Shown one piece after another: positions 11,201 to 42,851 of a DNA stretch of 59,195 nt (within the stretch, counting starts at the first letter, position 1; the number at the start of each line of letters is the position of its first letter). Location: the IMG/VR virus record IMGVR_UViG_3300008448_000086, positions 1 to 59,195 of that record. One strand, 5' to 3'. The translations under genes were made by a program, and so were the position numbers. Origin of the DNA: a virus. Its lineage: Duplodnaviria > Caudoviricetes. The notes under the pieces are model-generated. The model made no database searches, was not told where the DNA came from, and saw nothing but the letters and a program-made list of their open reading frames with translations.

Positions 11201-14200
11201 GCTTCAGGAGACACACTACCGCCTTCTACATCTGTTAAAAGACGAGCTGTTTCTCTAAGTGCATTAACAAGTCCACTTGAAGAGAACTTGGCTCTTTTTT
11301 CTGAAAGATTTTTAGCCCACTCGCTGGTTACTGTTTCAATCTTATACTTGATAGCAGATATATATTCTTTGTAAGCATCATAGTTATAGTTTCCGTCATT
11401 ATAAATATCATCAAGTGCATTATTTAATGACAGCAGCTTTGATGGCTTGTTTTCTGCTAAATAATTTAAGTAATTATCAGTAAGATAATGATTCAGCATC
11501 CTTAAGAACTGATTATAAAGGTCTGTGCTTTTTATCTTGTTTCTTAAGTTAGATACAGGAGCAGCCTCTGTAACAGCCCCTCTTCCTAGTTCATAATCAG
11601 CCAATAACTTAGATACACTTACCCTTACGAATGGCTTGCCGTCTGTTTCTCCTCTGCTGCTTATTTTATCTTTAAAAACATCGGGGACTTGTGATTCGTT
11701 ATCGTAAGTAAATGTAACAATATTTCCAGCCTGCATGTCCCTAACCTGCTCTTCTAGCGTTGGCTTCCCGATTTCCTCTGCGCCCTCTGGAGCTTGCTGT
11801 GCTTTAGCCGTAACCACAGGAGACGCTAGCTCTTTTTTCATTTGAGCAATCCTGTTAGAAAGCGAACCTCTAACATCTTGTATCTTATCGGATACCATTT
11901 GGTCTATTGGCTTCGGAAGAGCTGCTCTTAACTCATCATATTTCTGCTGTAGCTGTGTTTGTTGTTCAGGAGTAAAAGCATTCGCCATGCTCTTCTTTTC
12001 TGCTATATTATCCATTGCAGACTGAAGACGCATAAGAGATTTAAGGTCTGATAAATCCAATGCACCTGTCTTAACTTTTTTATTAAGATTTGTAAGTGTA
12101 GTATTTAACTTATCAAACTCTGTTTTAGGCGCTTGAGTGTTTGGAGCTGTTATAGTATTTAGCACATTAAGCGCAGCGTCAATCTTTGTATTATCACCTT
12201 TAGCTATCTGTCTTAAATGCGTATTAAATAAGCTCAATTCTTCAAGCGTAGCATTACTCCTATCCCAATCATTTGGGCTTACTGACAGAATATTTGCTAT
12301 TTTAGGGATAAGTTCTCCTGTATATTCTGTTTTGGTTTTAGACTTTATCTTATTAATAAGTCTTCCCATATCATCTATCATCTTCCTTCTGTATCCTTTC
12401 TCTACGATAGCAGATATTTCTCTTGAAGCCTCATCCATTGATGCCTGAAGGTCTGGGCTTTTATCAAATACAACGCTCTGGATTTCTCCTACAATTTTAT
12501 TAACCTCGTTTGGCGTCAACTCCATTCCTCTGCCAAAAGCAGCGTTCATTGCTTTGAACATGTCTCTTAGAGAAGCCACCATCTTCTTTGAGTTATTAGA
12601 CAGCTGGCCTATACCTTTTATTTGGCTTGCTACAAGGATTGACATATATTTCCTTGCTGACATGTTCACCATTTCAGCTTCCAAAGGAGATATCTTTTCG
12701 GTTCTTGGGAAAGCAGCGTTAACAGCATCTCTAGCTATACCAGATGCCGCTTTAACAAGAGTTATAGATGGTATATTTACAGGATAGTTCCCTCTTGCAT
12801 ACATGGAATCTATCTTGTTTATAAGTTCAGAAAGTATGTTTTTATAAGCTTTAGTAGGAGTTGTCTTACCATCCTTCTTTGCTTTGTTTGCTTTAACTAT
12901 GTCATCGGCTATTTGCTGTGCTGCATCAACCAAAGACCTTACTTGTGGAGTAGCAAACATACCCATCACTTGAGCTTCAGTTTGCGCTGTTCTTTCTTGC
13001 CCTCTTAACTCATTAATCTTCTTATCAAGTTCCTGAGCAAGCACATTATCAGGCTCGATATCCTTTATACCAAATTCTCTTTTATTAGCATTTATATATT
13101 CTATAGCTTTACCAAATGCGCTATATGCCGCTTCATCAACATTGCCAAACCTATTCATCTCGGCAGCCATAATTCTATCGAGAAGTTCTTTTATTTTAGG
13201 CCTTACCCCTTTCTCGAAATCAGCTACTTTTCTGTTGTACGCTTTTTCAATTATTGATGTAACATTTGCTGTAACCTCATCTATGTTTTCTTCAGAGAAT
13301 GGCTTAGCAAATACCGCATCTTCCATCTCTTTCATTATCTTTCTAAACTCAGCATCTGTATATTTAAGGTCTTTCCCAAGCTTAGCGTTCATCGCCTTAA
13401 ATATGTCATTTACAGCTTTTCTTACAGCCTTAACATTTTCAAATATTTTAGCACCTGCTCTTGCCTGCTGTCTCATTAAGTCTGCTATGTACTTTCTTGT
13501 AGACATAGTAACTTGCTCCACTTCTTGAGCAGACATTTTTTTAGCACTAGGATATGCTGCATTAACAGCATCTCTAGCTATAGACTTAGTAAGTTCAATC
13601 ATTATTTGCGGAGATGCAGCTTCTGGCACTCCTCCAGCCTCGTACATTTTTTGTATAGCTTTTTGAACAGTAGAAAATACCTTCTGATAAGCTACTAATG
13701 ATGACTTTTCTGTATTTTTTAAGCTTTCTGCTACTCTATTTGCTATAGTAACAGCACCTTGTATTCTTGGATTTGAATAAATCTGATTTATCCTTGTTTG
13801 CCTTTGCTGTTCTTTTATCTGCTCATCCGTCATGCCGGCCATTACACCAACCTTCTCTATCTCAGCAACTTTTTTCATTGCATCAGTAACATCCTTCTCG
13901 GTGTAGTTGTTATCTGCTGCAACCTTCCTGATGGCATCCTGAAGAGCCATACCACCTTTCACTAAAGCCTTTAATGCCTTTACCATCGTCTGGATGGCAG
14001 CTAAAGGTATAACCCTTGTAGCATCACTAAGCTTACCTGAATTAAGTTCTTTCCCGATAGCCTTATCAATACCATCAAGAAAGTTAAATACCTTTTCAAG
14101 ATTTGTAGGCTCTTTAGTATCGGCTGTTAATAGCTCATCTACATTGACTGGAGCAGCTTCCGCTACGGGTGCAGCCTCTGCCGTTGGAGCAGCAGGTGCA

Positions 14201-17200
14201 GCAGGAGCAGTATAGCCGGTATCAGTAATCCATTGCTTAACCTTATCAACAACAGGTTGACCTAGTTGCCTTACAGCACGGTCTTCACCTTCTGTTACTT
14301 GCTGAGCTAGTTCGTCCATCAATTGAACCTCCTGACCAGGATTTATTGTCCTAGTATAGTTTTGCATGGCAGGAGTCTGCTCTGGAAGAGCTGTTATTTC
14401 TTGGACGGCTTGTTGCGCTTGGCTGCCGAAATTGCGATTGCGAGTATCTGGGCTTGGCTGCGCGGTCTCCCCGACTGCCCCTTCTGCTTGCCTTTCTTGA
14501 GGTTGTCCTTCTTGAGTTCCCGTAGGTTGTACGATATCGCTTGGTTGACCGACTTCTTGCTGCGGTCTTTCGCTGATTTGAGTGGCATCTTGTGGAATTT
14601 GAGTTTGAGTAATAGGAGTTGTTTCTGTTACAGGTGCTGCTTCAGCAGGAACTTGTCCTATAATTTCACCTGTATCTGATATAATATTTCTTTGTCTTGC
14701 AGGAGCTTCTGCCTTTACCTTATCTACCTCTGCATTAAGGCCTGCATCATCTGTATAAATCTTTACATTACCGGCAGCTACCTCTTCCTTCACTTCCGGT
14801 GTATTCATCACACTCTTTACCCCATCAGGAGTTGAAGTAAATACAACACCTGGCTGTATCTCGATGGTGGCAAGTGGCGTAGTTCCGTTGACTACACCTT
14901 CTATTTCCTTCTCCTTAGCTGCAATCTGCTTCTCAACAGCTTTTCTTGCAGATGGGTCCGTTACGTTATTCAGTGTATTTTTTAACTCGACAACCTCTTG
15001 ACTAAGAGATGCAAATATCTGCGTCTGCTGAGGATTCAATCCTATCTGCCTGGCTTCTTCGATAGTTTTAGCTACCGTCTGCACTTCCTTCATTCCTTCA
15101 CCAAGAGTCTCCTCATCCATATCATTTGCAAGGGCATCCAGTTGTACGCCTGCCATTGCAGCAGTTTCTCCATTTTTAATAATTGATGCAGCGACGGATT
15201 GTGTTCTTACACTTGGAATATTCTTTTTATCAAACAAGGCTTTGTACGAAGAAGACACGCCTAAGCTTGCACCCCCAAGGATACCACCAACTGCGCCTCC
15301 TTCAATAGCTGCATTCATAGCATCTTTTGAGAAGAAAGCCTGCGTAAAACCTAATTTAGCATCTGCTCCTGATGACAATTCAGATGCTGTCTGCCAAGCC
15401 TCTTCAAGAGCGTTAGATGCAATACCAGTCCCTATCTGCCCTAGTCTTTTAGACACGGGCGTTTTAGCTGCCTTAAGTCCTGACAAAGGAGCAAACATTC
15501 TCTGTACAAGTACCTCTGACAGAACAGTAGGGAAGTTCTTTATAAAAGATTCCTGACCTGCTGCTCTTGCAGCTTCCATATCACCTGTATTCTCTAGCAC
15601 TCTCTCCATTACACCACCGCTATTTTCAATGCTTTCTGAACCAAAAGCTATAATACCACCTATGTATGGATTTTTAGTTAGAGCTGTTGTAAGCATACCT
15701 GCTGCCATTGAAGGACCTGACTGAGCAATGGATTGCGCCCAGTACCCTGGCTTAAACCAATTCTGACCTAATGGAAGCTTTTCTATGGAGTAGTTAAGTT
15801 CTGCTGTCTTACCTGAATACTTCATGGCATCAATAGCATCAGCCTCAAGTCCAAGAGCATTTAATACAAGAGCTGTTTTACTCTTAAGTGAGCCAAGTGC
15901 CGACATGCCAGTTTCGGTAAGTATCTTACCAATAGCAGTTGTGCCAACCATGCCACTCATGCCACTCATATCAATGAGCGACTGAGCATAGCCTTTATTC
16001 TGTTCTTCTCTTGCCTTTGTTTTGCTGTCAATTATAGAGCCTATATCTTTTGTGAACTGGTCTACTTGAGCCTGATTAAGTCCTTTTAAATAGGTCTCTG
16101 CCTCTGCCTTAAACGCAACATCCATCTCCTTATTTATCCTCTTAACAGCATCATTTGTCTTTGATACTTCTATTTTAATGTCAGCAGCTATGCTGTCAGC
16201 TATCTGGTCGTATTTAGGATTTACGAACTGAGCATATTCTGTATCAAATATCTCTTTGGCTCTTCTTTCAAATGACTCCTGAAGTGCCGGCTGATAGATT
16301 CCTGTAATTCCTTCAAGCTGCTTCATTGCCTTATCTTGTGCAGCAGCCCAATAGAAGTTAGCGTCAACAGAAGCGTCTGAAATAGCCGAAGAATACTTTT
16401 CCTGTATCTTCCTTACCTTTTCTTGCAGAAGCCTCTCTTCTGTCTCTATTTGCCCTTTAAATCTATTTTTGACATCCGTTTGCTTACTTAACAAGAATGC
16501 TTTCTGTTGAGCTTCAGTACTACCTCCTGTCATCTTCTTGGCTATATCATCTCTTCCTTGAAAAGTAGAAAGAATAGTATTTAAATTTTGCTTATCGCCT
16601 ACCTTACTCCATAAAAATGTTTTCAGGTATCTTCCTGCATTGATTCCTTGTGCAGAAATAGCCTCATCCATATCCTTCCTCAACAACCCTTCGTCGATAT
16701 ATTCTACGCCTGCTGTATTCTTCTTGATGTACTTTTCTACGTTACCTCCGAACTTTATGATATCATCAAAGCTACCAAACAGATAATCTGATATTTTATC
16801 AGGTACTTTGTTTTTTACTAAATCATTGATTACGCTGTTCTTCTGTATTAATGCCTTCTGCTCATTATTTGCAAGCTCGGATTTGAATTGCTCGGTCTCT
16901 GCTTGACTACCAAATGCAGCAGGAGTTTCCCTAAAGAAACTTCCTTGCGTAGAAACAGATAATCTTTTATTTGCCTTATTAGTTTTTGCTATTGTCGCAT
17001 GCTGTTCAAATGCCATTTCGGCTCCTGACAAATCACCTATTTCAAGCTTCTTTGCTTTCTTGGTCGGTAATACCTGTTGTTGCTTCTTAGGCTTTATAGG
17101 CTCTGTAATAGCTGATATATCCCCAAACTTAGGTTGCTGAGGAACTATCGCAGGAGCTGGAGTAACAGTTTGATTTGTTTTAGGAACAGGTTCTTGAAGT

Positions 17201-17256
17201 CCATCCAATTGCTGCTCCTGACCTAGTTGTTCTTGGGTGAGTTGTTGTTCTGCCAT
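8266..17256 (-). CDS. Giant internal virion (ejection) protein, 2996 aa
   Basis: Helical A/K/E/Q-rich; hydrophobic GxxxG segments; last of three internal-protein genes after the nozzle gene; own TATATTTG box at 17268-17261. Confidence 0.75.
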   Translation of the reverse strand: MAEQQLTQEQLGQEQQLDGLQEPVPKTNQTVTPAPAIVPQQPKFGDISAITEPIKPKKQQQVLPTKKAKKLEIGDLSGAEMAFEQHATIAKTNKANKRLSVSTQGSFFRETPAAFGSQAETEQFKSELANNEQKALIQKNSVINDLVKNKVPDKISDYLFGSFDDIIKFGGNVEKYIKKNTAGVEYIDEGLLRKDMDEAISAQGINAGRYLKTFLWSKVGDKQNLNTILSTFQGRDDIAKKMTGGSTEAQQKAFLLSKQTDVKNRFKGQIETEERLLQEKVRKIQEKYSSAISDASVDANFYWAAAQDKAMKQLEGITGIYQPALQESFERRAKEIFDTEYAQFVNPKYDQIADSIAADIKIEVSKTNDAVKRINKEMDVAFKAEAETYLKGLNQAQVDQFTKDIGSIIDSKTKAREEQNKGYAQSLIDMSGMSGMVGTTAIGKILTETGMSALGSLKSKTALVLNALGLEADAIDAMKYSGKTAELNYSIEKLPLGQNWFKPGYWAQSIAQSGPSMAAGMLTTALTKNPYIGGIIAFGSESIENSGGVMERVLENTGDMEAARAAGQESFIKNFPTVLSEVLVQRMFAPLSGLKAAKTPVSKRLGQIGTGIASNALEEAWQTASELSSGADAKLGFTQAFFSKDAMNAAIEGGAVGGILGGASLGVSSSYKALFDKKNIPSVRTQSVAASIIKNGETAAMAGVQLDALANDMDEETLGEGMKEVQTVAKTIEEARQIGLNPQQTQIFASLSQEVVELKNTLNNVTDPSARKAVEKQIAAKEKEIEGVVNGTTPLATIEIQPGVVFTSTPDGVKSVMNTPEVKEEVAAGNVKIYTDDAGLNAEVDKVKAEAPARQRNIISDTGEIIGQVPAEAAPVTETTPITQTQIPQDATQISERPQQEVGQPSDIVQPTGTQEGQPQERQAEGAVGETAQPSPDTRNRNFGSQAQQAVQEITALPEQTPAMQNYTRTINPGQEVQLMDELAQQVTEGEDRAVRQLGQPVVDKVKQWITDTGYTAPAAPAAPTAEAAPVAEAAPVNVDELLTADTKEPTNLEKVFNFLDGIDKAIGKELNSGKLSDATRVIPLAAIQTMVKALKALVKGGMALQDAIRKVAADNNYTEKDVTDAMKKVAEIEKVGVMAGMTDEQIKEQQRQTRINQIYSNPRIQGAVTIANRVAESLKNTEKSSLVAYQKVFSTVQKAIQKMYEAGGVPEAASPQIMIELTKSIARDAVNAAYPSAKKMSAQEVEQVTMSTRKYIADLMRQQARAGAKIFENVKAVRKAVNDIFKAMNAKLGKDLKYTDAEFRKIMKEMEDAVFAKPFSEENIDEVTANVTSIIEKAYNRKVADFEKGVRPKIKELLDRIMAAEMNRFGNVDEAAYSAFGKAIEYINANKREFGIKDIEPDNVLAQELDKKINELRGQERTAQTEAQVMGMFATPQVRSLVDAAQQIADDIVKANKAKKDGKTTPTKAYKNILSELINKIDSMYARGNYPVNIPSITLVKAASGIARDAVNAAFPRTEKISPLEAEMVNMSARKYMSILVASQIKGIGQLSNNSKKMVASLRDMFKAMNAAFGRGMELTPNEVNKIVGEIQSVVFDKSPDLQASMDEASREISAIVEKGYRRKMIDDMGRLINKIKSKTKTEYTGELIPKIANILSVSPNDWDRSNATLEELSLFNTHLRQIAKGDNTKIDAALNVLNTITAPNTQAPKTEFDKLNTTLTNLNKKVKTGALDLSDLKSLMRLQSAMDNIAEKKSMANAFTPEQQTQLQQKYDELRAALPKPIDQMVSDKIQDVRGSLSNRIAQMKKELASPVVTAKAQQAPEGAEEIGKPTLEEQVRDMQAGNIVTFTYDNESQVPDVFKDKISSRGETDGKPFVRVSVSKLLADYELGRGAVTEAAPVSNLRNKIKSTDLYNQFLRMLNHYLTDNYLNYLAENKPSKLLSLNNALDDIYNDGNYNYDAYKEYISAIKYKIETVTSEWAKNLSEKRAKFSSSGLVNALRETARLLTDVEGGSVSPEAIKNNLATLRIHQLDVELAGIEKDEFDMGMLERDIFGPMSGHQEAAMNKTQPKLEQLRSAMLAFADNSNHKAIKKAIAAVSSKYGAGLDLLFAKLKELTKRGYQARLLHDISVRMTTIIANQIDDISNLAEGETPIDVVLQRNIIGVKTDENGRPIFSDKTMAEHYKSPGTYKADVEQNYDNLVNTIAYAALTNNGTTTLAGLNEGQLMALLSPKQKEGLNIWRQVINETEGLTEAAMVISGNLKGFLKNYFPRRVRQDKAVTEITDTENYLNGGFEYGGLANGMLQSRRGNVGALDLDGNRVLFNNIKSLYLLAEVKPYLDYIKGINEAAKKAEADGDLFAARYLQGIELYATERLNANLLKNEKSLSDSYGTMFKALSGIQSFTAKSYLISVIRQFALEYPVNILKTASALASANREMPGQTWRLIDPRNLAYRTPKGKFEWKDYMKVVQFTGSQIARTMNLYPDNYIYEYSKSTEQLQREQKLIGWQDIRPKKLAWMIRFETAFKRLTGEDFDHKAFEDERGIYRALNLATVEKASSVADSFVDKQYGLSSFTRDPLRINPGMVPTIGIVAGTLIGGPVGTAVAVGTGATGGFLSRGVRNLLNRIFKTDRAWFTIKKDDVTALVTGFLQGYAGVQHSAFMSNIKEAFSLNSRLSFKDRAIKLNSAVFEQLIPIIQYTLTRKYTGLLFVTATGVIMLAGEEEDKEDVRKKALNPKFWERQLYKMKQMFKEQKDNIYRDLTGAALSVSLDPQTSYGIKMAGGFALFNLWKEDAVAKLAEKGLTKKEIEERKRKIKEVESVWFDVYNIRPIDIIHGEDYATALDRHYYTGEATKDWEETAATITASSELVQLVSFAKTWNELRKEAVENKEIDKDELYTAAALKAYSIIFNLKILGGKYGYALSMMTGDARKWSNMMLKDIEAKQRQFEREMQKKKKKGGGYGGGAGALGTGGFEGGAGALGTGGLGGGAGALGDGGF
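8272..8390. repeat. Three Gly-rich repeats (GGAGALG[T/D]GG) at C-terminus of the giant protein
   Basis: cctaaagctcctgctcc occurs three times. Confidence 0.85.
14394..14588 (-). CDS. Small basic protein overprinted in an alternative frame inside the giant gene (MPLK..QAIAIA type, DUF6496-like)
   Basis: MPLKSAKDRSKKSVNQAISYNLREL...QAQILAIAISAAKR resembles a stand-alone small phage protein family; A/C-rich leader with A at -3. Confidence 0.7.
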   Translation of the reverse strand: MPLKSAKDRSKKSVNQAISYNLRELKKDNLKKGKQKGQSGRPRSQAQILAIAISAAKRNKPSKK

Positions 17257-24460: not shown

Positions 24461-25077
24461 TACTTAATGTCGTTGCCGTCGTTACTAATGTCCTGAATGC
24501 CCATCCTTGACTTTACCCTTCTTATGACTAAGTCAGTAGCGGCAAGTCCAATGTTATCAGGAATATCTGTAGAATCAGGAGTAGCCTCCGAAGTAACCAT
24601 CCTGACTATACCCTTTAAATCCTTTAGATTCTTATAACTCATCATATAGAACGTAGAGCCTTCTGTCCAGCCAAATATCTTATTCTTGGGCATAGGAAGC
24701 ACTCTCATTACATCTATCTCTTGAGGAGCAATCTGAATGACAGTATCTGTCAGCTGGCCTTCTCCGCTTTTAAAATATACACCTGCAATAGCGATACCTC
24801 TAGGAAGACCAAGAGGAACCTGCGGAAGAGACAGATAGTAATATCCCGTATCGTTGTCCTTTGAGACAACTCGGTTCTTAAATGTAGCATAGTACATGTC
24901 GTTCATGTACGTGATGCTTTCCATTTCAGCAGACTCCTTATAGCGCTGCTCCATTACAGTAGCTATCGCCTGACCAAGCCAAAGCGATATCTCGTTATCC
25001 GTAATCTGAGCATCGTCAAACGGAAGGCCGTTATTGATGTCTCTTTGTATAAGTTCTATTAACTGCGCTCTTGTCAT
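24460..25077 (-). CDS. Tail ring/adaptor protein
   Basis: MTRAQLIELI.. N-terminus; between paralogous ring genes. Confidence 0.6.
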   Translation of the reverse strand: MTRAQLIELIQRDINNGLPFDDAQITDNEISLWLGQAIATVMEQRYKESAEMESITYMNDMYYATFKNRVVSKDNDTGYYYLSLPQVPLGLPRGIAIAGVYFKSGEGQLTDTVIQIAPQEIDVMRVLPMPKNKIFGWTEGSTFYMMSYKNLKDLKGIVRMVTSEATPDSTDIPDNIGLAATDLVIRRVKSRMGIQDISNDGNDIK

Positions 25078-25766
25078 TCACCTTGCATTTTTGCTGTTTG
25101 CGAAACACGAACCAAATCAGCGTCTTTAAGATTAATACCTATCAAACCAAGCTGTATAAAGATAAGCTCATTTATCTCCTGGTCTCTCCATTCGGGATTT
25201 ACAACAGCACCACTTGTCCCAGACGAGTCATAAGTAGGTACTCCTCCAACCAGTGTAAATGGCCATGTAATATCAGCCGGCTTCCTGACATACGTCATTA
25301 TCATCCTGTCAACATCATCTGTTCCTGTTATCATCCTGAATCCGCCATCGTATTCATAGTAGTACGGATTAGTAGCTGAAGGGGGGTCAATAACAGAGCT
25401 GATAGCGCTATGTATTTGCTCGTGCTTCACCCTTCTGATTCTTTTCCCATCTTCTGTATTTAGACTTAATAACTTCAGATAATCAGGATATTGCGTCTTT
25501 ACATTTGCCAGCTCATTAACAGACTTTAAGATTACCCTTTTGGTAAACGGAGCAAGCTTCTCTTCAACCACCTGCGTCATGTGACCGCCTGTGCGAGCCA
25601 CTGGTCTGCCTGGTTGATACTCTTGCACCTGACCTAAAATCCTGTTAATGAATATTCTTTGGGCTGTGTTGAACGTATTTACAAACTCATCAGGAGCCAA
25701 ATACCCGTGATGATACTTGTTGCAGAGGTATTGAACATCCTCGTATACGGTATTAGAAGTAGCCAT
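25074..25766 (-). CDS. Head-tail adaptor/ring protein
   Basis: NK..GYLAPDEF..FN.AQ and Y.RKP..W motifs. Confidence 0.7.
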   Translation of the reverse strand: MATSNTVYEDVQYLCNKYHHGYLAPDEFVNTFNTAQRIFINRILGQVQEYQPGRPVARTGGHMTQVVEEKLAPFTKRVILKSVNELANVKTQYPDYLKLLSLNTEDGKRIRRVKHEQIHSAISSVIDPPSATNPYYYEYDGGFRMITGTDDVDRMIMTYVRKPADITWPFTLVGGVPTYDSSGTSGAVVNPEWRDQEINELIFIQLGLIGINLKDADLVRVSQTAKMQGE

Positions 25767-25770
25767 ACAT

Positions 25771-25807
25771 CAAAGATAAAAAAAAGGCCACTGTAAAAAC
25801 AGCGGCC
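25771..25807 (-). terminator. Intrinsic terminator fused to TATCTTTG promoter box
   Basis: ggccgctg-tttttaca-gtggcc + U8 running into TATCTTTG, 4 nt before ATG 25766. Confidence 0.75.
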
Positions 25808-25848
25808 ATAAACCTAAACTATGAAAAAAGCTATATTTATTTCAACAC

Positions 25849-26814
25849 TTAAAGGACTTCTTTGAGTCGCTTGTAGAAGGCATTAGACTCATCTGTGTCG
25901 GAAAGGATGAAGTTTGCAATGACTTCAACTACCGATTTTCCAAATGGAATCTCTGTGATTACCTTGTCGGAATCCTTCCATGTGAGGTATCCTTTTTTAG
26001 AAGCTACATCAAGTACGCCTGCATCAAGGCCTTTCTTTACGAAATACTGAGCTTTAGCAGCCGGACTTCCTGATGTACTCATAAAGTATTCAGGCTTCTC
26101 AGCAGCCTTATTGGCGTAGTCTACGCGTACTTTAGCAAGAGACTTCTGCTCTCCGTACTGATTAATCATCTGGATTCCTAAAAACTCGGCATGGATAAGC
26201 ATATCTTCTACTTCAGCATTCATAGCTGTATTGATAGCTCTCAGCTTCGTTTCTTCTTTTAACAGCTCTTTGTTCTCAACATCTGCGCTGTTAACGAGCG
26301 TATACTTAGGCTTCTTGCCTTTCAGTCTCTCTTCTTTCTTATCGTAGTCATCGCTGTTCAAAAGGAACTTTAACAGCGTCTTGTTTGTTCTTGGAACACG
26401 CAGGTATCCGTTGTTAAATACGATGTCCAGCTTGTTTCTCTGCAAATATTGCGGAGTATAGCCTTCCTGCTCATCCATAAAGATGGAGCTTGCGCCACGT
26501 ACCAAACGAATAGTTCTTACGGATTGCGTTTCGCTGTCATATACAGGCATCTCATTTACTACAGACTCATAAGCTTTAGGCTTTATCCCTTCAGGAGTTA
26601 ACAGCTTAAAAACGTACATCTCTGGCTCTTTCTGCTGAGATTTGATTTTAAACTCTGTCTTAGCGATGATTTGCTTGAGTTTGTCTCCTTCTTCATCGAA
26701 CTCCTTAATGGGTCTTTTAGGTCTTTCGATGGCATCTTCTGTAACTACTGGCGCATCGGACAGCGCATTTAATACCGGTAGTTGCGGCTCTTGTTTGACT
26801 TGTTTTGTAGGCAT
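25849..26814 (-). CDS. Conserved protein downstream of the major capsid gene (virion-associated, function unknown)
   Basis: 321 aa; IRL...SIFMDEQ..IVFNNGYLRVP motif; TATATTTG box at 26837-26830. Confidence 0.6.
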   Translation of the reverse strand: MPTKQVKQEPQLPVLNALSDAPVVTEDAIERPKRPIKEFDEEGDKLKQIIAKTEFKIKSQQKEPEMYVFKLLTPEGIKPKAYESVVNEMPVYDSETQSVRTIRLVRGASSIFMDEQEGYTPQYLQRNKLDIVFNNGYLRVPRTNKTLLKFLLNSDDYDKKEERLKGKKPKYTLVNSADVENKELLKEETKLRAINTAMNAEVEDMLIHAEFLGIQMINQYGEQKSLAKVRVDYANKAAEKPEYFMSTSGSPAAKAQYFVKKGLDAGVLDVASKKGYLTWKDSDKVITEIPFGKSVVEVIANFILSDTDESNAFYKRLKEVL

Positions 26815-26838
26815 AAATATTTATTTGAACAAATATAA

Positions 26839-26903
26839 TAAAAAGCCCCCGAATATGAATAGTCAGGGGGTTATTTATTCACTTAACACAAAAAAACAAA
26901 CCT
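26839..26903 (-). ncRNA. Putative small antisense RNA B
   Basis: TACATTTG (26914-26907), U/G-rich body ggtttgttttttttgtgttaagtgaat, terminator ccccc..ggggg + U-tract. Confidence 0.6.
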
Positions 26904-26916
26904 TTGCAAATGTAAC

Positions 26917-26974
26917 AAAAAACCCCGAAAGTAAAAACAATCGGGGAGTAATAGAAAACAGAGTCAATCCAAGA
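26917..26974 (-). ncRNA. Putative small antisense RNA A
   Basis: TATTTTTG (26985-26978), body ttggattgactctgttttctatta, terminator ccccga..tcgggg + U6. Confidence 0.65.
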
Positions 26975-27033
26975 ACTCAAAAATACTTTATTAATCTATT
27001 CGTGCTGAATAGTTGTATCAACACTATTTAAAT

Positions 27034-27066
27034 AAAAAACCCCCCGAAAATCGAGGGGTCTTTTTT
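27034..27066 (-). terminator. Terminator after the major capsid gene (bidirectional type)
   Basis: gacccctcga/tcggggggt hairpin with A- and T-tracts on both sides. Confidence 0.75.
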
Positions 27067-27080
27067 ATGCTTAGTTAAGA

Positions 27081-28445
27081 TTAAGCACTCAGGCGCACGA
27101 AGCGGTTTGCAGCGAACACACGCAGACCAGCATAGCACAGGTGGTGTACGTTCAGTTCAGCAACATCGCTTGTAGGACTCTTAGCGAAAGCACCAGTTTC
27201 CCAAATGTGCAGGTCTTTGCCATTCACATTGTTGTAGGTAACTTCGATAGAGTTGTAACGCTCTCCAGTTTGAGGGTCACGTCCTTGAGCCATCGGAACT
27301 ACGATACCGTAGTTTTTGTACTGATGGTCAGTAGGAGTAGCACCGTATACAGCTTCAGGAGAGAACGGCATGTACTTCTTAATGTGGAAAGTATAGCCAT
27401 CCATAGTGATAGAACCGAAACCGTACATAGCAGCAGCTTCTTTGCTACCACCTACAGTACCCCAAAGGATAGCACCAGCATCGTACAGGTCAAACAGTTC
27501 GTCATCCAGCTCTTGACGTAAGAACACGTCAGCAAGCAGGTGATTCTCCATAGAACCTCCGTTGAAGTCTAAAGCACGAGTTACTTCGTGTAATTTAGCT
27601 CTGTCAAGAGAACCAGCAGTATAAGATACGCCAGTACCACGGCTTTCGATTTGGTCGATAAGACCGATAGTGTTCTTAGAAGTAGCAGAAGCGTTTGTGT
27701 TGGTAATTTGCTTACCGAAAACAAGAGTAAACTCTTTGTTGTTCATGTAACGCTTAACAGCATCTTCGAGACCTTTGTAAGAGTAATTATCACCAAACCA
27801 GATTTCTTCAATCATAGCACGGTCAGTTACTCTCCAGTCTTCGCGGATTTCAGAAACGTAGTTCAGAACTTCTTCAACACGAGGAATCAAAGCATCTCCC
27901 TTAGAAGAAGCTTCGCCTACCGCAGCTTGTCCGCGGAAGAGAATCCACTCGTTAGCATCCAGACGACCATCTACAGTAGCAGACTCAAATTGTTGAGTAG
28001 AGCTAAGAGGACGTACAGTTGCAGTGTGCGCACCAGCAGAAGTTTTGTCAACTGAAACTACTTTACCTTGGATACCAGTAGAAGCGATTTCAACTACTTC
28101 ACCTACACGGATAGGAGATTTAGTTCCGCTGTCATAGTGAGAACCAGAAGTCAAAGTGAAAGTAACAGCAGAACCATTGGTTGCACCAGTTACGTTAGCT
28201 TGTACTTGAACAGCTTGGTGTAATTTACCCAAATCTTCCCAGTGACGGATAGTTTGAGATTTCACCTGTCCTTTGAACCCGAGCATTTCCAACAGCATAG
28301 TGTAGTTCTGAGAACCATACTTGCTGATGAATTTAGGGTAGTACTGAGGTTTTAAGATACTAAGGTCACTAACGATACCTCTCGTTAGACCTGCGCCAGG
28401 ATTTACAAATGCTGACGGTTTCTCTGAGGCTGAATTGTATGCCAT
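27081..28445 (-). CDS. Major capsid protein
   Basis: 454 aa after scaffold; strongly biased codon usage; YGSQ, GFGSITMDGYTFH, HHLCYAGLRVFAANRF motifs of Bacteroidota podophage MCPs. Confidence 0.85.
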   Translation of the reverse strand: MAYNSASEKPSAFVNPGAGLTRGIVSDLSILKPQYYPKFISKYGSQNYTMLLEMLGFKGQVKSQTIRHWEDLGKLHQAVQVQANVTGATNGSAVTFTLTSGSHYDSGTKSPIRVGEVVEIASTGIQGKVVSVDKTSAGAHTATVRPLSSTQQFESATVDGRLDANEWILFRGQAAVGEASSKGDALIPRVEEVLNYVSEIREDWRVTDRAMIEEIWFGDNYSYKGLEDAVKRYMNNKEFTLVFGKQITNTNASATSKNTIGLIDQIESRGTGVSYTAGSLDRAKLHEVTRALDFNGGSMENHLLADVFLRQELDDELFDLYDAGAILWGTVGGSKEAAAMYGFGSITMDGYTFHIKKYMPFSPEAVYGATPTDHQYKNYGIVVPMAQGRDPQTGERYNSIEVTYNNVNGKDLHIWETGAFAKSPTSDVAELNVHHLCYAGLRVFAANRFVRLSA

Positions 28446-28470
28446 TTTTTGAGATTTTTAATTGTTAATA

Positions 28471-29598
28471 TTACGTGTTACCAAAGAAATAATCCACCAT
28501 TTCCTGCTCCTTACTCAGCTGTTCGTTAGGTTGTTGCCTCATTGTCGTGTCCTGAAAGTTGGCATTTTTCAACCCTTTGATGAGTAGCGATTTCGTATTG
28601 TTTACCGCCTGACTTACATGTGCATCAATAATCTTATTCAGATTCTCCAGCACATACACATCTTTGGCGATAGCAGTAGTATTAAAGCTACCATCTTCTT
28701 TAATGTAACGAGGTACAAAGTAGTCCTGTAGAGTAAACTTCTCAAGCGATTGTTTCAGATTCTGCTTTTCAGCCTGGTCTATAACAAACGATGTTTGGAA
28801 GTCTAGCTCATCGTCCTTGTACTTAGTTCCAAAACCCGTAACCTCATTCATGGCCGAGTCAATGGATTTTACGTACTTGTCCCTGAACTCCTTTATAGCA
28901 GCTTCGTCAATTTCGTTCCCTTGTGGAACTTCAGCTTGACTTGCGCTCGTTGCAATATCTGGAAGAACTATTTCCTGTTTCTTTTCCTGTAAGAAGCTTT
29001 TGGCTTCCTTCAAGTCTTTCTTTTTAAGACGCTCCATTGCTGCCACCTCTCTTTCATATCTCTTCTTAGCCTTCTCAATGTCAGCAGGGTCGTCTAAGTC
29101 TTCATCAATATCCGGCTGGTCTACACCATATCTGCTTTCAAATTCATCTTGCAGTTCAGCATCGGACAGCTCAGGGTTTTCGTATTTGAGTTTTAACTTT
29201 AAAACGTTATCGGCATCCAATTTGTCAACATTTTCAAGTTGCTTCTGTTGCTGATAGACGTTCATAAACTCATCTACCTTACCTTCCTTCAAATATTCAA
29301 AGACCTTCTTACTTGTTTCGTTAGCAAAATTAATTTCCTGATTAACAGGTTTTTCAGCAAGTTGTAGTATTTCATCAACACTTTTAAACTTACCGTTAGT
29401 TTTTTCTGCTAAAATAGCATCAAAGTCTATTTGTGTTGAAGGATTAGTTTCATGTGGAACATTGCTGTTGCCTGAAATGGCCTCTTCTGCTGCATTTACA
29501 GGCGGTTGCGAGTTACCACTTTGGGAACCTTCACCTTCTTGTTGCATCTCACCGGATGCGATTAAATCCTCGAACATCGAGGCATTAGGATTACTCAT
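28471..29598 (-). CDS. Capsid scaffolding protein
   Basis: Acidic coiled coil directly upstream of MCP. Confidence 0.75.
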   Translation of the reverse strand: MSNPNASMFEDLIASGEMQQEGEGSQSGNSQPPVNAAEEAISGNSNVPHETNPSTQIDFDAILAEKTNGKFKSVDEILQLAEKPVNQEINFANETSKKVFEYLKEGKVDEFMNVYQQQKQLENVDKLDADNVLKLKLKYENPELSDAELQDEFESRYGVDQPDIDEDLDDPADIEKAKKRYEREVAAMERLKKKDLKEAKSFLQEKKQEIVLPDIATSASQAEVPQGNEIDEAAIKEFRDKYVKSIDSAMNEVTGFGTKYKDDELDFQTSFVIDQAEKQNLKQSLEKFTLQDYFVPRYIKEDGSFNTTAIAKDVYVLENLNKIIDAHVSQAVNNTKSLLIKGLKNANFQDTTMRQQPNEQLSKEQEMVDYFFGNT

Positions 29599-36648: not shown

Positions 36649-37256
36649 TATATTCCTGTTTTATGGTTTAATAAAAAGTTACCCCATTGTTCAGCCATTG
36701 CGTCGGCTATTCCTTGATAAGTCTTACTTCTTTCTTTTGATTTATTGCTTCCTAGCCAATGTATTCTTGTTCTTTCTTTTACAGGAAGCGTCATCATATA
36801 ATCGTAAACATTATTTGTTTCATTTAGCTTAGGCAATCCTTTAAGCCACAAGCAAGTTTTTTTCTGCTCAGGATGACCAAACTGAAAAGGATTTATAATT
36901 TGGTCAGGCTTTCTATATCTTGAACTCATTATACAAATAGGATTTTCTACAGCTATGTACTTAACTGGAGCATTTACAAATTTCATAAAAAAGTCAGCAG
37001 CTTCATCTTGCAAATAACGAGGCTTTACTCCTTCCTTAAACCATCTCGCACCACTGACAGCCAAGTGCGTACATGGAGGATGCGCAATAATTAAATCCCA
37101 GCCATCATTTAAAACTTCCAGCACATCTCCTTTTATATGCCACTCAGGATGACCTCCACTTTGGTCTTGTATATCACAACTATACGCCTCGAATCCTTTT
37201 GCTCTGAATGCCTTACATACAGTTTGACTTTCTTCGCAAGCTATTAATACTCTCAT
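36648..37256 (-). CDS. Short phage-type DNA cytosine methyltransferase-like protein
   Basis: VLIACEES (SAM-binding variant), HPPCT catalytic PC, ENP, RSKTYQGIADAMAEQW. Confidence 0.75.
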   Translation of the reverse strand: MRVLIACEESQTVCKAFRAKGFEAYSCDIQDQSGGHPEWHIKGDVLEVLNDGWDLIIAHPPCTHLAVSGARWFKEGVKPRYLQDEAADFFMKFVNAPVKYIAVENPICIMSSRYRKPDQIINPFQFGHPEQKKTCLWLKGLPKLNETNNVYDYMMTLPVKERTRIHWLGSNKSKERSKTYQGIADAMAEQWGNFLLNHKTGI

Positions 37257-37915
37257 ATTCCTGTTTTATGGTTTTCTGTTAATTGGTATCCGTGGTCGAT
37301 GGCGATGATGTCTTCTTCTTTTACTCGTATCAGACGGTGCTCTCTGCCTTTATCAGCATATACAACCTCATAGTCCGCCATTGTCTCAACGATTACAATA
37401 TCGTTCGGTTTAATGTACTGCTCCGACACTTTTTCGTCACTATTATTTGCAACTTTTGTGACAAGAACACGGTTATTTTCTTTCTCATCACTCAGGTCTG
37501 TTAATACTAGAGCGGATGTTTTAGCTTTCTTATAGATTCTTTCTGCAAGGATATATCCAGGCATAGGAGCAGGATTACCTTCTTCATCAAAATAAAAGAA
37601 AATATTCTTAGGTCTTACGGCATAGATATACAGCTTTTTATTTCCTCCGTATACGCTATCGTCTTTTGTAACTATGGCTTCTATCAGGTTATGGTCTGCA
37701 AAGGAGTTATGCCAGCATACAATCCTAGTACCCTCTTTTAGACCAAGATGATTGTCCGCATAGACGACTGCATTAACAGCATTCTTCTCTCTTTCGTTCC
37801 AACCAAAGTCTTTGTCGATGAATAATTTAATGTCTGTTCCTTCGATGGTGTGGGAGTATTTGTCTTCTTTGTCAACGACTACGACAATCTCTCCGCGGAG
37901 TGGTTTGTAGTTCAT
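37253..37915 (-). CDS. GroES-like co-chaperonin (two GroES-like halves)
   Basis: YKPLRGEIVV..., PMPGYILAER..., IKPNDIVIV..LIRVKEEDIIA; position upstream of packaging genes. Confidence 0.6.
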   Translation of the reverse strand: MNYKPLRGEIVVVVDKEDKYSHTIEGTDIKLFIDKDFGWNEREKNAVNAVVYADNHLGLKEGTRIVCWHNSFADHNLIEAIVTKDDSVYGGNKKLYIYAVRPKNIFFYFDEEGNPAPMPGYILAERIYKKAKTSALVLTDLSDEKENNRVLVTKVANNSDEKVSEQYIKPNDIVIVETMADYEVVYADKGREHRLIRVKEEDIIAIDHGYQLTENHKTGI

Positions 37916-38986: not shown

Positions 38987-39059
38987 TAGAAATATTTTTG
39001 TAAATATAGTAACATATTAGCTGTTAACAGCACCTAATTGTATGCACACTTATAGAAAC

Positions 39060-39118
39060 TAAAAACCCACCAGCAAGACTGCCGATGGGAATCAGTTCTC
39101 TTTCGAGGCTTTCACGAG
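39060..39118 (-). ncRNA. Putative small antisense RNA C
   Basis: TATCTTTG (39129-39122), terminator cccatcggca/tgctggtggg + U5; complementary to plus strand 39253-39289. Confidence 0.55.
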
Positions 39119-39199
39119 ATTCAAAGATACAACTTATTTTGATAAAAAAAAATATTTTAAATAATTTTTTTATTTCAGATACTTTTATTAATTTGCTGT

Positions 39200-39640
39200 C
39201 ATATTCAAGTTCTTTCAAATAGGTTCCAGTGATTCCTTAATATCACAGACACACTGCCTTTCTCGAGGTAGTTACGGCTTTCACGAGATGAAGCTTTAGC
39301 GCATCAATCCTAAGCCCAGAAGTCGGGTAATAACTGTCAGCATAGACAGCCACGTCTCCCCGATAGTGTCGCAACTGGAATAAGTATATAAAGACCTTTA
39401 TGGGTAGTATCTGATGAGAAATAGAGATTATCTCAGGACCAAGGGATACTACGAGGGTGTACCACTACGGTGGCAACGTACAGCATAAAGCATAAAACTT
39501 ATTCTAATGTAAGCGAAATTCATCCCGCATCTAAGGGGACTTTCATGCCTTCTCGTAAACAGCTTCCTACTCGATAACATAGCTCGCTCCCTAGTATTTT
39601 CAAGCGCTTCTATCTTCTGCCGGTCGCTCGCTTTATATTT
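39200..39640 (+). ncRNA. Putative structured non-coding RNA
   Basis: GC-richer ORF-free block; long-range stems ttccagt/actggaa, gaataagt/acttattc, gtagtatc/gatactac; strand inferred. Confidence 0.45.
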
Positions 39641-39831
39641 TGTATTTATTTATTTAATAATTCAAAATTCAAAATTTAGCTGTTAAAAATACAGAGTGAT
39701 TGAGTTTAGGTAAAGTACATAAATGCTAGGGGTTCCCCCCTCCCCCATCCGCACCACCGCATCGGGGGAAATCGATTCCTGCTACTGAGTACCCTCAAAT
39801 GTTCGCGGGATGTTCACTAGATAGTTGCTTC

Positions 39832-39908
39832 AGTCTACTAACTTTGTAGAGTATAAAGGAAAGTCTATCTAATTGGTAGACAATGAATTAGTCTAGTAAG
39901 TTGGTAGG
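39832..39908. repeat. Three palindromic AGTCTA-N9-TAG(A/G) sites
   Basis: agtctactaactttgtaga 39832, agtctatctaattggtaga 39862, agtctagtaagttggtagg 39890. Confidence 0.75.
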
Positions 39909-40214
39909 GTGGGCATCCCCTCCGCTCCTTTCCTGATTATAACCTTCGCAAATTTTACCACTAACTTTTTTTTATTACATTAATAAAATTATTTTCTAGA
40001 ATATGTAATAAGATAGTTTTAAATGTCACGGGTTATTGTGTTAATTGATTTGAGCTGATAAATTTACTTTCCTTCATTTACTTTCCTTTATTACTTTATT
40101 AAATATTATTTAATGGTCTATAAACAGTAATTTGATATTTTCTAATTAACAGCCCTCCTTATTGAATGTTTTCTAAATTTTGACATAAGTGTTTTTTATA
40201 TGAATTATTCGCCT

Positions 40215-40222
40215 TAGCTTTG
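40215..40222 (+). promoter_or_regulatory. -7 box (TAGCTTTG) for early transcription
   Basis: TAnnTTTG ~70 nt before the first early ORF, downstream of an AT-rich tract. Confidence 0.55.
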
Positions 40223-40291
40223 TGAGCGAAGCGAACATGCTTCAAAAGTTAATGTTCTTTATTTATTTATTCATTTTTAAATCATGTTATC

Positions 40292-40783
40292 ATGAGCACA
40301 CAAACAAACAACGGGAGCGCGACCGTAACCAATACGCGCCAGGTAGTTAATTTGTCAACTACGAAAACAGGCAAAAATTTAACGGGAAAGCAGTTAAAAA
40401 ATAAGTTGGCAAATGACAAGGCAAAGGAATTGAGAAAAGCCACAAATGAAGCTCAAAAAGTAGCTACACAAACGGCAAAGGACGCGGAAAAAACTTTATC
40501 TTTTCAGTACAAAAGGCTTCAAAAGTACGCTCAAAACTACTGCATCTCTTTGTCTCTTGAAACGGGAAAGGATGTATCCTTCGAAAGTATCAAGGCGCTC
40601 AAATTTGCTGATTTTACGCCATATATTACCGAACGTGAAACGGCTGTATTTTTCGGTAATTGGTCGTTTCCCCGTTTCTTAACAATTATCAAAAGATACT
40701 ACAGAGCGGAGGCAAAGAATACTTTGTCGCCTGAGCAGATATCGGAACTTTCCGCCATAGTTGACGAAATTAACGCGGAATAA
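40292..40783 (+). CDS. First early protein, function unknown
   Basis: 163 aa ORF, divergent from late arm. Confidence 0.7.
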   Translation: MSTQTNNGSATVTNTRQVVNLSTTKTGKNLTGKQLKNKLANDKAKELRKATNEAQKVATQTAKDAEKTLSFQYKRLQKYAQNYCISLSLETGKDVSFESIKALKFADFTPYITERETAVFFGNWSFPRFLTIIKRYYRAEAKNTLSPEQISELSAIVDEINAE

Positions 40784-40789
40784 TACACC

Positions 40790-41630
40790 CTTACACCCCT
40801 ATACGTTAAAACGTACAGACAAAATTTTGCTTGTCTAGGGGTGCAAATATACCGGAAAAAAATACAGATATCCGGTAAGCATTGGTAAAAAATAGCCGAT
40901 ATATCAGGCTAACAATTCAGTGAATTGCTGATATATGCTTCATGCAGTGCATGAACGGGCAAAGATATGCAAATGTCATCTGTAGTTCTTTTGGGGCGAC
41001 ATTGCGACATATTTAGGATAAAGTAAGGATATTCAATATTTACGTATAATCGGGTAAAATTGCAGTGCAGTCCGGTTATATCGGTAAAGTTTACCTAGTA
41101 ATTTATTTTGTATCTGTTAAGCATAAATTTACTTTATTCGCGTTAAGTCGTTTCTAATTATTCAAGAAACGGACAAAGTAGCCCTGCATGATGCTGATGC
41201 AGTATGTTTTCCATGTGGCAATAAACGAACAACAAATGGTATTTAAGCGGAGCAAACCGCCTATACACCGGACCGCCGGAAGGTATGTCATGCAATAACT
41301 TATTTATGTTTATGCTCAAAGTAGACATGCCGGTAATTAAAACAAACGGATAACTTGTATTTTCGATTTATCATTATGCAAGTATGTGACTATCTGTTAA
41401 CAGCAATGTGCAAACGTCTGATTCTAAGGTGCAAACGTCTCAAACAAACCAACAATATTCACCTAACACAATTAGTAAGCCGGAACCGGCATGACTATAC
41501 TCGCCCTGATGTCGAAACAAAGGGTTAATTGTGCAAGGTGCAAACATATTGTTTTTAATAAACTCTCTTCAGGGAAAGTAAAGACAAGTGCAGGTGATTA
41601 GCGCGCCAGGTTCGATTCCTGGCTTTCCCC
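40790..41630 (+). ncRNA. Large (~850 nt) ornate structured RNA candidate
   Basis: ORF-free; nested multibranch stems with G-U pairs that only work on + strand; ends in tRNA-like domain. Confidence 0.65.
41572..41630 (+). tRNA. D-armless tRNA-like element (not a canonical tRNA)
   Basis: Acceptor gggaaag/ctttccc; T-arm ccagg-ttcgatt-cctgg; 9-nt linker in place of D-arm; 4-bp stem with 9-nt loop. Confidence 0.6.
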
Positions 41631-41662
41631 TATATCTGACAAAACAGATATTTTTTAAGCTT

Positions 41663-41869
41663 ATGAAACAGTTACAAAAAGCATTTGCCAACGTAAATCA
41701 AACGGCAAAATCTCAAGGCGTTTGCCCTATTCTTGTTGTGTTCAATGGATTATGCTTTGTTGATACTGAGGTGAAAAGATTCGAGAGAGAGAAGGCTGTC
41801 AAAGCGCAGGCAAAAAGAGGCGGGAAGTACAAAGCGCCACCAAAATTCACAGGCATTTTTAATTTTTAA
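41663..41869 (+). CDS. Early hypothetical protein
   Basis: ATG 41663 (MKQLQKAF). Confidence 0.6.
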   Translation: MKQLQKAFANVNQTAKSQGVCPILVVFNGLCFVDTEVKRFEREKAVKAQAKRGGKYKAPPKFTGIFNF

Positions 41870-41899
41870 ACTAAATCAAATAACACAAAACAAAACAGC

Positions 41900-42100
41900 A
41901 TGAAAACCAATTACACAAAGGTCTGCTCAGCTAAAGATGGCAAGGTCATCCGCTCAACAGACAAACCTATCAGCACTCACGAAAGAATCATCATTGCCTT
42001 AACAGAACTTGGCGAAGATGTAAATGAGTTTAACTTGAAGGCAAGCTTCAGGGCTCACCAAAGAAAATTAGCAAATCCAAACCTTAACCCCTTCAACTAA
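41900..42100 (+). CDS. Early hypothetical protein
   Basis: A-rich leader, ATG. Confidence 0.6.
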   Translation: MKTNYTKVCSAKDGKVIRSTDKPISTHERIIIALTELGEDVNEFNLKASFRAHQRKLANPNLNPFN

Positions 42101-42106
42101 TCAGCC

Positions 42107-42331
42107 ATGACAGTAAAAAACATGAACACGCTCAAAGCAATGGAGCGCAAAGGATTAATCGAACTGCACAGACAAACCGGAAGCAAAATTGCAGGACTTT
42201 ACAGCAACCAGAAGTTCACATGCTACTATGTGCATGACGGACTGACTCAGTTCCAGTACAAAAAGCAGTGGTACGGCATTAAGTACTTTTCCGGATGCTT
42301 CTTCCCTTATGTAGTAAAACTTTTAAACTAA
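42107..42331 (+). CDS. Early hypothetical protein
   Basis: ctaatcagccATG junction; KYFSGCFFPYV motif. Confidence 0.65.
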   Translation: MTVKNMNTLKAMERKGLIELHRQTGSKIAGLYSNQKFTCYYVHDGLTQFQYKKQWYGIKYFSGCFFPYVVKLLN

Positions 42332-42337
42332 TCAGCC

Positions 42338-42550
42338 ATGCAAAACGAAAAACTCGGCATTAATCTGCGGACATTGCTAGATACTAGCATAAGTATAGCA
42401 CTTCGCAGCATGGATTTATCTAACTACGAACAGCGAAATAAATTCATAGACATGATAGAAAAGCGCATCATTGAAGATGCAGACTGGATAAGCATGTCTA
42501 ATGGTACGACGTACGAAAAAACTTTCACCCCTAAATCTAATAAACAATGA
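42338..42550 (+). CDS. Early hypothetical protein
   Basis: Same ctaatcagccATG junction. Confidence 0.6.
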   Translation: MQNEKLGINLRTLLDTSISIALRSMDLSNYEQRNKFIDMIEKRIIEDADWISMSNGTTYEKTFTPKSNKQ

Positions 42551-42642: not shown

Positions 42643-42656
42643 ACCATAACACAAAC

Positions 42657-42830: not shown

Positions 42831-42851
42831 GATGTTTGTTTTGTGTGAACT

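Follow-up and report, generated by a model that had tools for sequence, protein, structure and literature searches.

Behind the capsid gene of a crAss-like freshwater phage lies a small and conserved unit, here called unit B, in which a predicted promoter, a short body and an intrinsic terminator follow one another, and whose predicted RNA is antisense to a leader shared by many of the early genes of the same phage. The original prediction, made from the DNA letters of the window (the whole stretch of 59,195 nucleotides that we analyzed), was of a late RNA that shuts off early translation. The observation on which it was built is confirmed and is stronger than first stated, and the interpretation is plausible though unproven. 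One possibility, which we favor tentatively and to which we would give somewhat less than an even chance from the sequence comparisons described here, is that unit B encodes a trans-acting, anti-leader small RNA (sRNA), and thus an RNA counterpart of the T4 protein RegA.

The source record is an IMG/VR virus of 59,195 bases with an estimated completeness of 86%. Its minus strand from ~700 to 39,000 carries the structural genes, including those for the large terminase and the portal. One protein of this block has a Crassvirus muzzle C-terminal domain (3e-9; 37.6 bits against a cutoff of 27), and the gene at 27081-28445 (minus strand) encodes a capsid-type protein of 454 aa that is assigned to the PHROG category 'virion structural protein' and has a close homologue with Pfam PF17236. 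The plus strand from 40,300 to 57,100 contains some 40 ORFs, mostly small, and also encodes a methyltransferase, an exonuclease, an Erf-like annealing protein and a primase/helicase. We refer to the plus-strand block as early and to the minus-strand block as late, labels that come from gene content, strand and analogy with crAss-like phages only. No lysogeny genes were seen in the phage, and a blastn search with 25800-28500 against deposited phage genomes gave no match. Sequences of the phage are present in freshwater metatranscriptomes. Bacteroidota lack Shine-Dalgarno pairing, and the presence of Bacteroidota-type -7 boxes (TAHHTTTG) upstream of the phage genes, together with the absence of Shine-Dalgarno sequences, indicates a host from this phylum.

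The structural block also includes a giant ORF of 2996 aa (8266-17256, minus strand), the counterparts of which in relatives have 3459-3510 aa. Since a virion RNA polymerase like those of other crAss-like phages would supply a temporal logic, we considered this ORF as a candidate for one; it has no DFDxD motif, no Pfam match above cutoff and no PHROG or PDB sequence match.

Anatomy and conservation of unit B

A spacer of 266 nt separates the capsid gene from the gene that follows it (25849-26814); it is read here on the minus strand, on which unit B occupies 26914-26840 (Table 1). A simple terminator scan returned one of the three hairpins in the spacer, namely the first, and the remaining two came from folding; the terminator of unit B was missed because the loop and stem rules of the scan exclude its hairpin. 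The hairpin that closes the preceding unit is kept in all aligned relatives, with differing letters in the stem. The box of unit B conforms to the -7 element of the primary sigma factor and is a predicted promoter. PMC6847099 describes the Bacteroidota -7 element as TAHHTTTG, with the start site 4-5 nt downstream, and the -33 motif (TTTG) as weak; AT-rich tracts near -18 and -28 are the alternative to a -33 element. With this spacing the G of the box falls at -5, which sets +1 at G26902 and gives an RNA of ~63 nt. The -33 position of unit B is T-rich, is taken up by the previous hairpin and U-run, and has no exact TTTG. At the other end of the unit, the terminator hairpin has 9 pairs, of which 5 are G-C, followed by 5 U, as in an intrinsic terminator, and the TATATTTG box of the next gene marks the end of the inserted units. 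The order of hairpin, U-run and box also precedes bona fide late genes (37943, 26837, 25778 and 8217). In two late genes the -7 box is just 4 nt before the ATG (17268-17256 and 25778-25766, minus strand), which implies leaderless mRNAs.

Table 1. Features of the unit B locus and predicted pairing sites in early leaders (positions in the window)
Feature	Position	Strand	Basis or predicted energy (kcal/mol)
Strong terminator, first in the spacer	27060-27035	-	sequence reading, folding
Hairpin and U-run closing 'sRNA A', directly upstream of the unit B box	26917-26946 (U-run 26922-26917)	-	
Bacteroidota-type -7 box TACATTTG, fits TAHHTTTG	26914-26907	-	sequence
Predicted transcription start, G26902	26902	-	inferred from box-to-start spacing
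Body, 32 nt, weakly structured, U/G-rich; proposed pairing region	26902-26871	-	
Conserved core TTTTGTnT..AGTGAAT	26877-26893	-	alignments
Intrinsic terminator (hairpin 26869-26846, U-run 26844-26840)	26840-26869	-	folding
-7 box TATATTTG of next late gene (25849-26814; ATG 26814)	26837-26830	-	sequence
Best predicted target, leader of 138-aa gene 44316 (-28 to -3)	44288-44313	+	duplex -24.7; after opening -20.3
Predicted target, leader of 229-aa gene 44760, to A of AUG	44732-44760	+	-23.0; after opening -16.0
Predicted target, leader of 76-aa gene 47366	47334-47363	+	-20.0; after opening -14.4
Predicted target, leader of 70-aa gene 43789	43762-43786	+	-19.9; after opening -12.3
Predicted target, leader of Erf-like ssDNA-annealing gene 48467	48439-48465	+	-18.2; after opening -9.0
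12-nt exact complement, last base = A of ATG, 96-aa gene 47063	47052-47063	+	sequence
11-nt exact complement, last base = A of ATG, 74-aa gene 42949	42939-42949	+	sequence

The fold of the whole RNA is unremarkable in its stability when compared with shuffles (z = -0.74; 45 of 200 shuffles fold as well), as expected for a single hairpin with a loose 5' arm. On average, a base of the body is unpaired with a probability of 0.33 in the window; for the types represented by the related genomes G004, G002 and G005 this value is 0.52-0.60. Rfam gave no matches over the whole window at gathering thresholds, and 15 weak matches, all far under threshold, over 26700-27200. A protein-coding role for unit B was rejected, as the unit has no ATG and its sole frame is a GTG-initiated one of 4 codons. 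An ORF on the plus strand (26642-27031, TTG start) was likewise discarded; it crosses the spacer, where relatives have many indels that are not multiples of three. Assembled contigs from four freshwater metatranscriptome runs (two studies) were compared with the window over 25000-29000, and the capsid gene is covered whereas no run covers the bins 26876-27009, in a kind of data that is blind to small RNAs, transcript ends and strand.

Fourteen distinct variants of unit B were found in six whole or partial viral contigs (91-98% capsid identity) and in metagenome contigs. All 14 keep the box at the same place, a length of 58-63 nt and the terminator, and the originally predicted arrangement of promoter box, ~30-nt body and terminator, giving an RNA of ~63 nt in the window, agrees with sequence and folding. 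The hairpin is present in each of them with 6-10 pairs and a free energy of -10.4 to -15.7 kcal/mol, is followed by at least 5 U, and is built from several different stem sequences. If the G/C runs of the terminator are set aside, the core TTTTGTnT..AGTGA is the best-conserved stretch of the unit, and the 5' part of the body comes in three unrelated versions among the relatives. These hairpins were folded sequence by sequence, as RNAalifold on a MAFFT alignment placed them out of register (8 pairs, 2 double changes) and was abandoned.

Beyond these variants, a distant clade (about 45-50% capsid identity) has a single terminator and a single box in 32 of its 34 distinct spacers, and the small units are therefore a lineage-specific addition rather than obligatory punctuation. 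Two identical contigs from close relatives, L210 and L226, have no unit B in the 330 nt behind the second hairpin. Where unit B would be expected after unit A, the unit that precedes it, these contigs have an AT-rich stretch and another ORF, an arrangement that looks like an insertion or replacement. A scan of viral contigs for the core pattern gave more than 117 chance matches, and a box and terminator surrounded none of the 80 matches listed. In a distant lineage (L164 and L165), an extra box, ~40 nt and a terminator are located ~85-170 nt after the capsid stop (G006:18770-18860) and constitute an independent unit, the terminator hairpin of which recurs at G006:50098-50128. Two 12-nt complements to the body of this extra unit occur in the genome that carries it, of which one is located at -24 to -13 relative to a start codon; no leader family is evident in that genome.

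Complementarity to the shared early leader

Many early genes have a common, G-free leader composed of a distal ATTCAC(T)TAA-like motif and, after it, an A/C-rich tract (consensus about TAAAAACAAATCACA) that abuts the ATG. The shared motif may be a translation enhancer or part of an early promoter, and the common leader is by itself a conspicuous and testable translation signal. The family spans 41900-55900 on the plus strand, where some copies are directly behind a hairpin, without room for a host-type promoter; a TAHHTTTG box occurs in the 70 nt upstream of just 2 of the 40 genes on this strand. When reverse-complemented, the entire 26-32 nt body of unit B is leader-like, with its parts in the same order. 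The 5' part of the body (26902-26889) is antisense to the ATG-proximal A/C-rich consensus and the 3' part (26888-26877) to the distal ATTCACTTAACA-type motif, and since body and leader consensus are colinear, the predicted duplexes span about -30 to -1 of the mRNA.

The short complements that had been reported for this RNA are all present. Those of 12 and 11 nt are exact, the former ending at 47063 and the latter on the A at 42949, and contiguous 10-nt complements occur in the leaders of the genes at 41900, 44316 and 44760. The two genes with the longest exact matches are not the top partners by energy, the duplex at 47063 having -14.6 kcal/mol. The candidate targets lie at 41.9-55.9 kb.

Several controls indicate that this complementarity exceeds chance. 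Exact 11-mer matches number 3 in the window (the locus itself and two sites) against 0.03 expected, and 0 of 100 shuffles gave 3; 10-mers with at most one mismatch were not significant (9 against 6.45 expected, a number reached by 26 of 100 shuffles). The mean duplex energy over the 40 early start regions is -12.7 kcal/mol; late start regions have a mean of -9.9, and the interiors of early coding regions one of -9.5. Shuffled bodies average -8.7 (sd 0.87) with mononucleotide and -9.6 (sd 0.74) with dinucleotide shuffling. The observed mean, the mean of the top five and the count of sites at or below -18 kcal/mol were reached by none of 500 mononucleotide and none of 500 dinucleotide shuffles. 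Pairing is stronger at early start regions than in same-strand interiors of early coding regions (n = 295; Mann-Whitney p = 4e-6) or at late start regions (p = 0.005); a site of -16 kcal/mol or lower is present in 9 of the 40 early start regions, compared with 5 of the 295 interior windows and 1 of the 32 late ones. Perfect complements of at least 8 nt occur in 16 of the 40 early start regions, which was equalled by 14 of 101,800 other windows used as mock RNAs; when the mock RNAs were T/G-rich windows antisense to the interiors of early coding regions, the null that we consider fairest, 0 of 13,299 reached 16/40. The enrichment of seed matches at early starts that the original prediction called for thus holds against shuffled, genome-wide and composition-matched controls, and the predicted RNA has what is expected of an sRNA, a single-stranded seed that is complementary to the vicinity of start codons beyond chance.

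When the whole window was scanned for duplexes, the two best sites other than the locus itself were in the start regions of 44316 and 44760; of the 39 best non-self sites, 9 fall on early start codons or leaders (5 tagged by script and 4 read from coordinates), which make up ~1.4% of the positions scanned. The other 30 of these 39 sites are away from early starts, with energies to -22.9 kcal/mol, and single sites are therefore not distinctive. The positions of the sites had been described as consistently at start codons; as an enrichment over coding interiors this stands, but many sites of -20 to -23 kcal/mol are found elsewhere. A single word of low complexity, complementary to AAAAACAAA, accounts for much of the k-mer signal. 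Within the late CDS 4259-7111, close to its 5' end, a stretch at 7071-7096 (minus strand) has complements of at least 8 nt in 19 of 40 early start regions and scores as high as the unit B locus (19 against 16-17). An ATG-anchored weight matrix, dominated by A-richness, ranked the locus 22nd, 15th, 89th, 50th and 193rd in five genomes, and nhmmer with ungapped leader profiles, a search without power here, gave 0-3 matches per genome. The complementarity statistics describe a resemblance of the plus strand of the locus to early leaders, and this resemblance is common ground for RNA pairing, a shared DNA motif and an inverted duplication.

We also compared the body of unit B with the leaders of its own genome in each of five genomes, excluding the locus itself, a spurious ORF at the locus in G002, and isolated plus-strand ORFs. 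For the window (G000), G004, G002 and G005, 0 of 300 shuffles reached the observed mean and 0 of 300 the top-5 mean, and the composition-matched windows that reached the observed count of early start regions with a complement numbered 0 of 13,299, 1 of 14,120, 1 of 14,158 and 24 of 8,558, respectively. For G001, the closest relative, the corresponding values were 90 of 300, 50 of 300 and 117 of 15,153. All five loci thus rank in the top 0.8% of composition-matched windows, and by shuffles the anti-leader property is present in four of the five genomes with whole contigs and absent in G001. The claim that the RNA is antisense to a family of early translation starts extends to the whole body, which is antisense to the leader consensus; in G001 the body does no better than shuffles. 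In G001 one base of the core is changed and the energy signal is lost; the variant core has a match in 0 of 33 leaders of that genome, and the 12-nt site at 47063 is absent from the orthologous leader.

The target sets differ between relatives. The body from the window pairs best with the leaders of the window (top-5 mean of -19.8 against -13.8 to -16.0 on other sets), and the bodies of G004 and G002 pair best with G004 and G002 leaders (-17.3 to -18.8, whereas the leaders of the window give -12.5 and -12.7); G001 and G005 showed no own-leader preference in this cross-matrix. The preference tracks a switch between CACTTAA-type and CACTCTAAA-type leaders, on tiny counts, and co-variation counted by 7-mers is based on equally small numbers, the window giving 3 against 0 and G004 giving 1 against 3. 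In the G002, G004 and G005 types, the 5' part of the body contains a CAU that pairs with AUG.

Possible mechanism and competing explanations

How might such an RNA act? If unit B is an anti-leader sRNA, host RNA polymerase would transcribe it from the Bacteroidota-type promoter and stop at the unit's own intrinsic terminator, and the product would be an RNA of ~63 nt with 5' 26-32 nt that are largely unpaired and antisense to the common early leader. The RNA would presumably be made alongside the structural genes, as its promoter is of the same type. It would pair with about -30 to -1 of several early mRNAs in the cell and thereby occlude the unstructured, A-rich region that ribosomes of Bacteroidota, which lack Shine-Dalgarno sequences, would require; PMC6847099 describes initiation in Flavobacterium as relying on unstructured A-rich leaders. 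The outcome would be a shutdown of early translation, with early mRNAs perhaps exposed to decay. A wider version of this proposal, a 'leader code' in which a dedicated sRNA of the late block reads the common early leader and shuts off the whole class, and in which unit A does likewise for a GroES-like gene, strikes us as possible but doubtful. Units A and B would then be a small cassette, located after the capsid gene, of RNAs directed against start regions.

The main alternative, which we consider unlikely yet worth weighing with care, is that unit B is a non-functional relic, in which an inverted early leader was caught up when the punctuation of terminator and promoter that follows the capsid gene was duplicated in tandem. 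Transcription of the units is possible in that case, but their complementarity would have no effect. Such a history would agree with the single terminator and box with which nearly all spacers of the distant clade (32 of 34) manage, with the two contigs that have no unit B behind the second hairpin, with the loss of significant complementarity in the closest relative, and with the equally leader-like inverted stretch within a coding region at 7071-7096. Moreover, the plus strand of the locus in relatives reads hairpin, TATTTATTCAC and leader, which resembles the upstream regions of particular early genes, and this order fits an origin by inverted duplication. A relic, however, would hardly be expected to have its core as the best-conserved stretch across 14 variants while the flanks and the letters of the hairpin changed, to keep box and terminator in every variant, or to retain leader-antisense bodies in four of five genomes when the 5' part exists in three unrelated versions. 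Nor is the body a decayed copy of the leader of the downstream gene, since it is U/G-rich, the opposite of a sense leader. It is also conceivable, if improbable, that unit B encodes a real small RNA that acts on A-rich leaders of host mRNAs or on a protein, and that its likeness to early leaders is secondary. The anatomy and the conservation of the unit would hold in that case too, the variation of target sets between relatives would fit, and a U-rich body could pair with any A/C-rich leader that lacks a Shine-Dalgarno sequence, the Bacteroidota norm according to PMC6847099. The pairing is, however, specific to phage early leaders when judged against shuffles of equal composition and against late start regions.

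The resemblance between locus and leaders could also reside in the DNA, if the leader motif were the site of a DNA-binding factor or a phage promoter element and the locus an inverted copy that, for example, drives or blocks plus-strand transcription into the late genes. That the test statistics show only a plus-strand likeness to early leaders, that several of these leaders are behind a hairpin without room for a host-type promoter, and that host-type boxes are so scarce within 70 nt upstream of plus-strand genes (2 of 40) would all be in keeping with such an element. We nevertheless regard it as quite improbable. In at least two early genes (43789 and 55016) a host-type box is upstream of the motif, which puts the motif inside the transcript, and the ATG-proximal half of the leader always adjoins the start codon, as a translation signal would. 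The locus itself has no plus-strand box or gene, the ORFs behind the leader-like copy having 1, 3, 19, 27 and 65 codons, and early transcripts of phi14:2 have no common upstream motif. Very unlikely, in our estimate, is a role in cis, in which the box at 26914 would be a second promoter of the gene at 25849-26814 and the hairpin at 26869-26846 a regulated premature terminator. The unit is directly upstream of that gene and on the same strand, but the gene has its own box between hairpin and ATG, which is conserved in all relatives; the folds give no evident alternative antiterminator pairing, and the anti-leader sequence would be left unexplained.

Relation to known regulators and to neighboring units

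The known system nearest in function to the proposed anti-leader sRNA is T4 RegA, and among RNAs P1 c4, P22 sar and lambda OOP come closest. RegA is described in PMC3014915 as a phage protein that competes with the ribosome at the initiation regions of ~30 early and middle mRNAs, where it binds unstructured, A/U-rich sites that overlap the AUG or lie directly beside it. The proposed logic of unit B is alike in that one factor would act on many early start regions. RegA, however, is a protein of 122 aa, whereas unit B is predicted to give an RNA of ~63 nt that would pair by bases; the two have no sequence or structural relation, and the host of this phage, unlike the T4 RegA setting, makes no use of Shine-Dalgarno sequences. 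Unit B encodes no protein and hence no RegA fold, and the comparison is a functional one only.

The c4 RNA is a small phage RNA that pairs at a ribosome-binding region and blocks translation of a target that lies outside its own coding stretch. It serves temperate-phage immunity within a single operon (icd/ant) and is processed from the same transcript. Unit B, in contrast, would be a gene of its own, located 15-20 kb away from the sites with which it would pair, and would have numerous candidate targets; no lysogeny genes were seen in its phage. To our knowledge, the phage antisense RNAs known so far act on one gene, mostly in temperate phages. In a 2025 review (PMC12197685), c4 of P1/P7 is presented as a key antisense regulator, P22 sar and lambda OOP are described as small RNAs that inhibit a phage gene via pairing with its mRNA, and the term 'early genes' occurs 0 times. 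Both sar and OOP are transcribed opposite a single target, to which they are fully complementary, whereas unit B overlaps no target; as no credible plus-strand gene overlaps the locus, unit B is not a cis-antisense RNA of this type. Our full-text searches of the literature, together with this review, found no phage sRNA directed against a family of early start regions.

Trans-encoded, base-pairing sRNAs of Bacteroidota have a host-type promoter, an intrinsic terminator and a short single-stranded seed, and pair with start regions. These sRNAs are chromosomal and concern host metabolism, whereas unit B is phage-borne and predicted to be aimed at the phage's own leaders, and the Rfam searches found no sequence likeness between them. 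Such sRNAs have been mapped in Bacteroides thetaiotaomicron (PMC7366714). The factor known to shut off early translation globally is a protein, T4 RegA, and a trans-acting RNA version of it would be new, if true. In that case a lytic phage would time its program through an RNA that recognizes the leader of a whole temporal class, crAss-like phages would have in unit B their first proposed post-transcriptional regulator, and the RNA would offer a handle on translation start regions in Bacteroidota.

Unit A ('sRNA A'; 26985-26917, minus strand) has a box, TATTTTTG, at 26985, a body of ~27 nt, and a hairpin and U-run at 26946-26917. Over 14 nt the body is an exact complement of the start region of a GroES-like gene (37253-37915), from -15 to -2 (site 37930-37917 on the minus strand; 2 matches of the 14-mer against 0.00 expected), which supports the anti-leader reading of unit B. 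Conservation is higher in the body of unit A than in the body of unit B. The box of unit A has A rather than G as its last base in the G004 and G005 types, in which the target has a 1-nt deletion.

A candidate for a third small transcription unit is located in the gap between the late and early blocks (39129-39060, minus strand), where a box, TATCTTTG, is followed by ~40 nt and by a hairpin and U-run at 39089-39066, with no ORF. The stretch from 39000 to 41400 is nearly free of ORFs and has several TAHHTTTG boxes on both strands, as well as a long hairpin after the box at 40851 (minus strand), and it may hold further non-coding RNAs, or replication and packaging signals.
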